From Escherichia coli (GTDB taxonomy: Bacteria; Pseudomonadota; Gammaproteobacteria; Enterobacterales; Enterobacteriaceae), in assembly GCF_022846255.1 (NCBI RefSeq), contig NZ_AP025682.1: a stretch of DNA of 64,000 bases. One strand, written 5' to 3'. Positions within the stretch are counted from its first letter, which is position 1. Each line of letters begins with the position of its first letter. A program made the translations under genes and the position numbers. This document shows, one piece after another, positions 24,176 through 24,303 of the stretch. A model generated the notes under the pieces. That model made no database searches. It was not told where the DNA came from and saw only the letters and a program-made list of their open reading frames with translations.

Positions 24176-24203
24176 TTCGTTATGTCTCATGCAAAATAAA
24201 TAT

Positions 24204-24227
24204 CCTCCGGCATAGCCGGAGGTTTTT
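24204..24227. terminator. hairpin CCTCCGGC-ata-GCCGGAGG plus T-run: IS200 right-end hairpin, probably also terminating the toxin transcript
   Basis: Perfect 8-bp stem read from sequence, 29 bp after the toxin stop; same design as the split left-end hairpin. Confidence 0.6.
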
Positions 24228-24303
24228 CAAATGCGCCTATAAGGCTCTCTTACCAGCCGCGCCCTAACAGGCGCACACGATCTGACATTTGCATCCAACT
24301 TCG

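Follow-up and report, generated by a model that had tools for sequence, protein, structure and literature searches.

The right-end hairpin of an IS200C copy in the flgL terminator T-run as predicted terminator of a toxin–antitoxin operon in Escherichia coli

The rne–flgL interval

The window, a 64,000-nt stretch of E. coli DNA, carries a toxin–antitoxin module between rne and the convergent flgL gene, followed on the flgL side by an IS200 element that is itself interrupted by IS4 (Table 1). The genes of the module are arranged in the order antitoxin, toxin, with the start of the toxin gene overlapping the antitoxin stop codon (ATGA). NCBIfam assigned no family to either protein, and the family assignment was made from Pfam marks and PDB matches, the closest solved structures to the toxin being 7ak7_A (E = 7.7e-76) and 5fvj TacT (3.8e-44). 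Gene order, overlap, families and TacT-like toxin structure matches are all shared with TacAT-type type II modules (GNAT toxin and DUF1778 antitoxin). Compared to these modules the pair in the window is ordinary; its sole notable point is that the E. coli allele is without a canonical terminator of its own.

The module corresponds to an islet of ~882 bp (window 23311-24192) that takes the place of a 68-bp spacer by which the rne and flgL terminators are separated in K-12-type strains. Of 5426 E. coli genomes, 686 carry the islet, whose right edge is the same A-run that was later used by IS200. Weak Rfam matches to isrJ and ncS54 at 23234-23326, both under their gathering scores, were rejected as they correspond to the rne terminator. 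Elsewhere in the window, Rfam matches at the gathering level were obtained for SraB (17683-17851), the rne 5' UTR element (19712-20048), the PyrC leader (44744-44793) and ES036 (53924-53966), which fits an ordinary chromosome segment of the E. coli/Shigella type.

Table 1. Features between rne and flgL, in window coordinates
Feature	Position	Strand	Remarks
rne	20073-23258		upstream of the toxin–antitoxin module
rne terminator	23277-23305
Promoter-like site 5' of the antitoxin gene	23330-23359	+	ATGACA-18-TATAAT, 11/12 matches; consensus match only
Antitoxin gene	23391-23684	+	97 aa; DUF1778/TacA family (PF08681); identical E. coli loci annotated DUF1778/TacA
GNAT acetyltransferase toxin gene, TacT-like	23681-24175	+	164 aa; stop codon TAG at 24173-24175
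Native 3' spacer after the toxin stop	24176-24194	+	19 nt; last two A's (24193-24194) stem from the seven A's of the empty site
IS200, major part (right end through first half of left-end hairpin)	24195-24889	-	99-100% identical to IS200C copies
IS200 right-end tip	24195-24203	-	AATAAATAT on the + strand, ...ATATTTATT on the element's own strand
IS200 right-end subterminal hairpin	24204-24222		CCTCCGGC-ata-GCCGGAGG; 8-bp perfect stem, 7 G-C pairs, 3-nt loop
T5 run (TTTTT) directly after the hairpin	24223-24227	+	toxin's strand; A5 on the strand of IS200
IS200 tnpA, Y1 HUH transposase	24304-24762	-	152 aa; annotated IS200C in E. coli
Rfam STnc490 match (IS200 left-end/tnpA 5' UTR region)	24772-24895	-	120.5 bits; gathering score 56
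IS4, inside the IS200 left-end hairpin	24890-26315	-	1426 bp; NF033592, 8.7e-91
IS4 target duplication	24879-24889 and 26316-26326		CAGCCTAGCTG, 11 bp
Remaining 16 nt of the IS200 left end	26327-26342	-	tip GTGCAC on the element's own strand
flgL intrinsic terminator (insertion target)	26343-26376	-	hairpin 26348-26376 and five T's (26343-26347) beside the IS200 left end
flgL	26418-27371	-	convergent with the toxin–antitoxin module

The IS200 copy and its empty site

The TnpA encoded downstream of the toxin gene matched the profile NF033573 (transpos_IS200) at 6.7e-43, with 145.9 bits against a cutoff of 55. The element has the properties of the IS200 group, i.e. a Y1 HUH TnpA of ~150 aa, the appropriate length, near-identity to reference copies, insertion without target duplication, and subterminal hairpins at both ends with no terminal inverted repeats, the left hairpin being split by IS4. 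Its length was 711 bp when IS4 and one copy of the IS4 target duplication were taken out (expected about 707-711 bp). In tnpA and in both ends it is 99-100% identical to IS200C of E. coli, with which it also shares the 711-bp length, the lack of a target duplication and a left end abutting a T-rich target. The copy differs from IS200C, IS200F and IS1541 in occupying a site unseen in 5426 complete E. coli genomes and in its IS4-split left-end hairpin. We conclude that the IS200 is an ordinary IS200C copy, that the module is an ordinary TacAT-like pair, and that their juxtaposition follows the habitual target of IS200.

The ends of the element were fixed from 12 copies, nine of them from E. coli, including the one in the window, and three from plasmids (Salmonella IS200F, Serratia and Y. 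pestis IS1541A). The right-end tip was constant in all 12 copies and the next base outward varied. On the + strand the element starts with AATAAATAT-CCTCCGGC... at 24195 and ends with ...GGGGGTTTTCTGTGCAC, with the hairpin foot 9 nt inward of the right-end tip. Over its first 34 nt, a stretch that takes in the hairpin and the T-run, the right end does not differ between IS200C, IS200F, the Serratia copy and Yersinia pestis IS1541A, despite an overall divergence of these elements of up to 12%; the hairpin is thus no product of chance. It is the subterminal palindrome at the right end of an IS200C-type copy. The initial annotation had also attributed it to IS200, and this attribution was borne out by its presence in every IS200 copy examined at other loci and its absence from IS200-free modules.

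The reason originally given for that attribution, symmetry with a left-end hairpin, did not survive. The intact hairpin at 24894-24919 was considered as the IS200 left-end hairpin and rejected, as sequence matches and the target duplication identify it as the terminal hairpin of IS4. The true left-end hairpin is split by IS4, and its intact form is recovered when IS4 and one of the two duplication copies are taken out. The STnc490 match confirms the IS200 left-end region except for its final 6 nt, which likewise belong to IS4. Interruption of the left-end hairpin has deprived the IS200 in the window of its left recognition structure, and the copy is probably immobile. On the + strand, the sequence opposite the tnpA 5' UTR is now followed immediately by the IS4 terminal hairpin and TCTTTTT (24894-24926). 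The reverse arrangement was observed in E. coli MEI3O-23, where the left end of an IS200 adjoins an IS4 end with its terminal hairpin and T-run, indicating that an IS4 end can be used as an IS200 target.

Window positions 23260-25000 were compared with 5426 complete E. coli genomes. In none of these genomes did any one place cover 80% or more of the query, which broke into three blocks never found together: the toxin–antitoxin module (to ~24201), IS200C (from 24191-24195 to 24889) and IS4 (from 24886-24890 on). In 686 of the genomes the module was joined straight to flgL at an empty site (gtctcatgcAAAAAAAtgcccgcc) that reads ...gtctcatgc-AAAAAAA-tgcccgcc..., and the 10 listed contigs encoding the identical toxin protein were all empty sites as well. 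On the - strand, the A-run and the hairpin that follows it constitute the flgL intrinsic terminator, a fold of -22 to -26 kcal/mol followed by T7. In the window this 7-T run is split 5 + 2, with five T's beside the left end of IS200 (26343-26347) and two beside its right end (24193-24194), and no base was duplicated or lost at the insertion point. Insertion without target duplication is a hallmark of the IS200 family. The proposal that IS200 had inserted immediately 3' of the module agrees with a right end 19 nt after the toxin stop codon and with the 686 empty sites. These comparisons establish the order of events: IS200 arrived after the module and IS4 after IS200, because IS200-free empty sites exist, the T-run is split 5 + 2, and IS4 lies inside the left-end hairpin of IS200.

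The flgL terminator allele of the window (CCGGAGCGGGCA arm, 26348-26376) can form an almost fully paired stem on either strand. Most alleles without IS200 (CCAGAGCAGGCA arm) depend on G-U pairs and fold well on the flgL strand only.

The right-end hairpin in transposition and termination

As RNA, the right-end hairpin folds with -15.5 kcal/mol (z = -4.75), and none of 200 shuffled sequences folded as well. A stable fold was likewise obtained for single-stranded DNA (-10 kcal/mol, z = -4.4). The initial annotation had placed the end of the toxin gene 29 bp before this hairpin. The distance holds for the stem (stop at 24175, stem from 24204; 24204 - 24175 = 29), with 28 bases separating the two. 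It does not hold for IS200 as a whole, as the right end begins before the hairpin, at 24195, leaving only 19 nt of native DNA (24176-24194) after the stop codon. In agreement with the claim that no other hairpin with a T-run lies downstream of the toxin gene, a terminator scan identified the hairpin plus T5 as the only + strand terminator-like site from the toxin stop to 24894 (~700 bp). The scan flagged the hairpin on both strands.

In the IS200/IS605 family, TnpA binds subterminal hairpins, and a guide sequence is located 5' of each hairpin foot (PMC3201880). For IS608 this guide consists of 4 nt 5' of the palindrome foot, with cleavage at the right end occurring 10 nt on the 3' side of that foot; binding of the right-end palindrome by TnpA and the need for this palindrome in right-end cleavage are known for IS608 and ISDra2 (PMC3201880). 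The geometry of the IS200 right end is similar, with the hairpin foot 9 nt from the tip, AAAA in the guide position 5' of the foot, and a TATT tip resembling the left-flank target T(T/G/A)TT. The palindrome differs from that of IS608 in being perfect rather than imperfect, and the two sequences are unrelated. By analogy, the A5 run is a putative right-end guide and TATT a putative cleavage site. The A-run in the guide position is the same T5 run that gives the hairpin the look of a terminator from the other strand.

We also examined the right ends of relatives. In most of those with a TnpA 53-100% identical to the query, the tnpA stop codon is followed at 77-111 nt by a G+C-rich hairpin whose stem has 8-12 bp and whose loop has 3 nt. 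Among 18 distinct relatives (TnpA 59-100% identical to the query), five of the eight stem pairs had changes on both sides, examples of compensatory stems being CCTCC/GGAGG, CCACC/GGTGG, CCCCC/GGGGG and CCGCC/GGCGG; this set was chosen by requiring a perfect hairpin, and the 100% pairing within it is therefore circular. The inward-facing T-run was weaker or missing in distant relatives, which argues against termination as a function selected across the family. The primary role of the hairpin is most likely that of a TnpA recognition structure for single-strand transposition.

Read in the direction of the toxin gene, the hairpin is a G+C-rich stem-loop with an immediate U-tract, located on the transcribed strand downstream of a gene. 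We scored it with the d-score of d'Aubenton-Carafa 1990 and obtained 26.5 when reading along the toxin gene and -9.2 when reading along tnpA. The rne terminator scored 26.4. The flgL terminator scored about 44 on its own strand before and after the insertion and appears unharmed by the shortening of its T-run from 7 to 5. The d-score is an imperfect guide, as the left-end hairpin of IS200 read inward scored -40.8 even though it is a proven terminator. That hairpin is a bidirectional Rho-independent terminator that stops ~85% of incoming transcripts, and it (nt 12-34) shields tnpA from outside transcription (PMC4513863, PMC5435999). Like it, the right-end hairpin is a G+C-rich palindrome without mismatches, has a 3-nt loop, and faces incoming host transcription from a position ~10 nt from the tip. 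The two differ in sequence, and the right-end hairpin has the better T-run inward. It is plausible that the right-end hairpin is the terminator of the toxin–antitoxin operon, as predicted. We found no paper in which the IS200 right-end hairpin was tested as a terminator, and nothing direct on IS200 polarity.

The initial annotation had left open whether IS200 replaced or supplied the terminator of the module. Replacement is contradicted by the empty allele, which has no + strand terminator-like site for ~365 nt past the toxin stop. The flgL hairpin was considered as a bidirectional terminator shared with the toxin gene and rejected: on the + strand it has no T-run, pairs poorly in most alleles, and gave d-scores of -46 to -88. 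The alternative that IS200 supplied the site is favored, because the ancestral module is without a canonical terminator on its own strand.

From these data we consider it probable that the right-end palindrome of an IS200C copy, inserted into the T-run of the flgL terminator, is the predicted terminator of the toxin operon, with TnpA recognition as its primary role. In the ancestral arrangement, the flgL terminator was located 20 nt past the toxin stop codon on the opposite strand, and operon transcripts, finding no canonical terminator, would have run antisense into flgL. IS200 then inserted, without duplication, between the fifth and the sixth of the seven T's, bringing its right end to 19 nt and its hairpin to 28 nt from the stop codon. 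In the toxin's direction the element presents a strong G+C hairpin followed by UUUUU, where operon transcripts very probably end. Termination of incoming transcription would be a side effect or, at most, a means by which IS200 is insulated, and would not be an adaptation of the toxin–antitoxin module.

Two other accounts of how the hairpin came to lie beside the toxin gene were considered, and both are highly improbable. One holds that the hairpin is the module's own native terminator, with IS200 starting beyond it; the canonical form of the hairpin and its distance from the stop codon are typical of a terminator. This account is refuted by the comparison with IS200-free modules that had been proposed in the initial annotation: the hairpin is missing from all 686 such genomes and from 10 of 10 contigs encoding the identical toxin. 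At loci unrelated to this one, every IS200 copy contains it, and the sequence on either side of it is the same. The other account, also raised in the initial annotation, holds that the module and IS200 moved together as one mobile unit. Their adjacency is in keeping with this, and compared with K-12-type strains the module too is an insertion (882 bp), whose right edge lies at the same A-run. However, the pair was joined to IS200 in none of the 5426 complete E. coli genomes, and the exact junction sequence had no match in a genome-contig or a metagenome-contig collection, nor was an IS4-free intermediate found. In addition, the module occupies the same rne–flgL locus without IS200 in 686 genomes, and IS200 is found at many loci without the module. 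Joint travel is thereby refuted.

A more serious competitor, although still an unlikely one, is that the hairpin serves TnpA only as a DNA structure and causes no useful termination, such that transcripts would read through antisense to tnpA or be ended by Rho. The stem has only 8 bp and the loop 3 nt, the U-tract comprises just five bases and is followed by C, distant relatives are without a clear T-run, and the literature assigns the end hairpins of the family a role in transposition (PMC3201880, PMC7290912). However, by d-score the -15.5 kcal/mol hairpin with its U5 tract is equal to the neighboring rne terminator, and the sister hairpin at the left end, which has a poorer tail, stops ~85% of incoming transcripts experimentally (PMC5435999). 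We therefore retain the reading in which a TnpA recognition structure also acts as the predicted terminator of the operon.

IS200 at host terminators elsewhere

Terminator-like sequences are enriched upstream of insertion elements of the IS200/IS605 type, for which this trend is strongest (bioRxiv 10.1101/2025.07.22.666184). A TnpA protein scan of viral contigs yielded 79 loci, which together with the earlier copies gave 33 independent left-end flanks. In all 33, the T-rich tail of a hairpin-plus-T-run motif was located directly at the left-end tip. The last four bases of the flank were TTTT, TGTT or TATT in every case, and the adjacent stem was detected by script in 31. These motifs are host intrinsic terminators. 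At the right end, an inward-reading open reading frame stopped within 60 nt of the tip in at least 12 of 38 independent flanks, and annotation adds yebQ, sbcB and hypT as inward genes. The toxin gene is a further example, a convergent gene for which the right-end hairpin is now the first one encountered. The arrangement in the window is typical of IS200. At the locus itself it amounts to one lineage-specific insertion that probably shortens the toxin–antitoxin transcript and spares flgL from antisense run-through.

The location of IS200-clade elements exactly at host terminator T-runs, with end hairpins facing incoming transcription, provides annotators with a simple boundary rule. It also calls for caution, as a 'terminator' beside IS200 may be part of the element rather than of the neighboring gene. 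A more speculative extension, which we regard as doubtful, is a 'terminator swap': IS200 targets the T-runs of host terminators, an insertion between convergent genes severs one gene from its terminator, and the hairpin with T5 would have been kept by selection both as a replacement and as an antisense shield for tnpA. If this were true, such insertions would be nearly neutral, which would help to explain the persistence of the almost immobile IS200, and the toxin–antitoxin operon in the window would have gained a terminator that it never had before.

In E. coli MS 196-1, an IS200 between yebQ and htpX is inserted inside the yebQ stop codon, such that the annotated TAA combines a single flank base with the two outermost bases of the right end. 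At one locus the right-end tip directly abuts the left end of a second copy of the IS200/IS1541 type (gtgcccagaaaaccccc...), forming a head-to-tail tandem; this is consistent with a right end, with its hairpin and ...TATT, that mimics an IS200 target. Plasmids of ~90 kb, some of them from E. coli O157:H7, contain an unannotated 134-141-nt remnant of the IS200 right end with 92-94% identity, in which the hairpin has decayed to CTTCCGGT-ata-GCTGGAG. Finally, a 111-nt segment overlapped by a gene annotated 'FAD-dependent oxidoreductase' on several E. coli and Salmonella plasmids is a perfect match to the IS200 right end and probably represents a truncated copy at the end of a gene.
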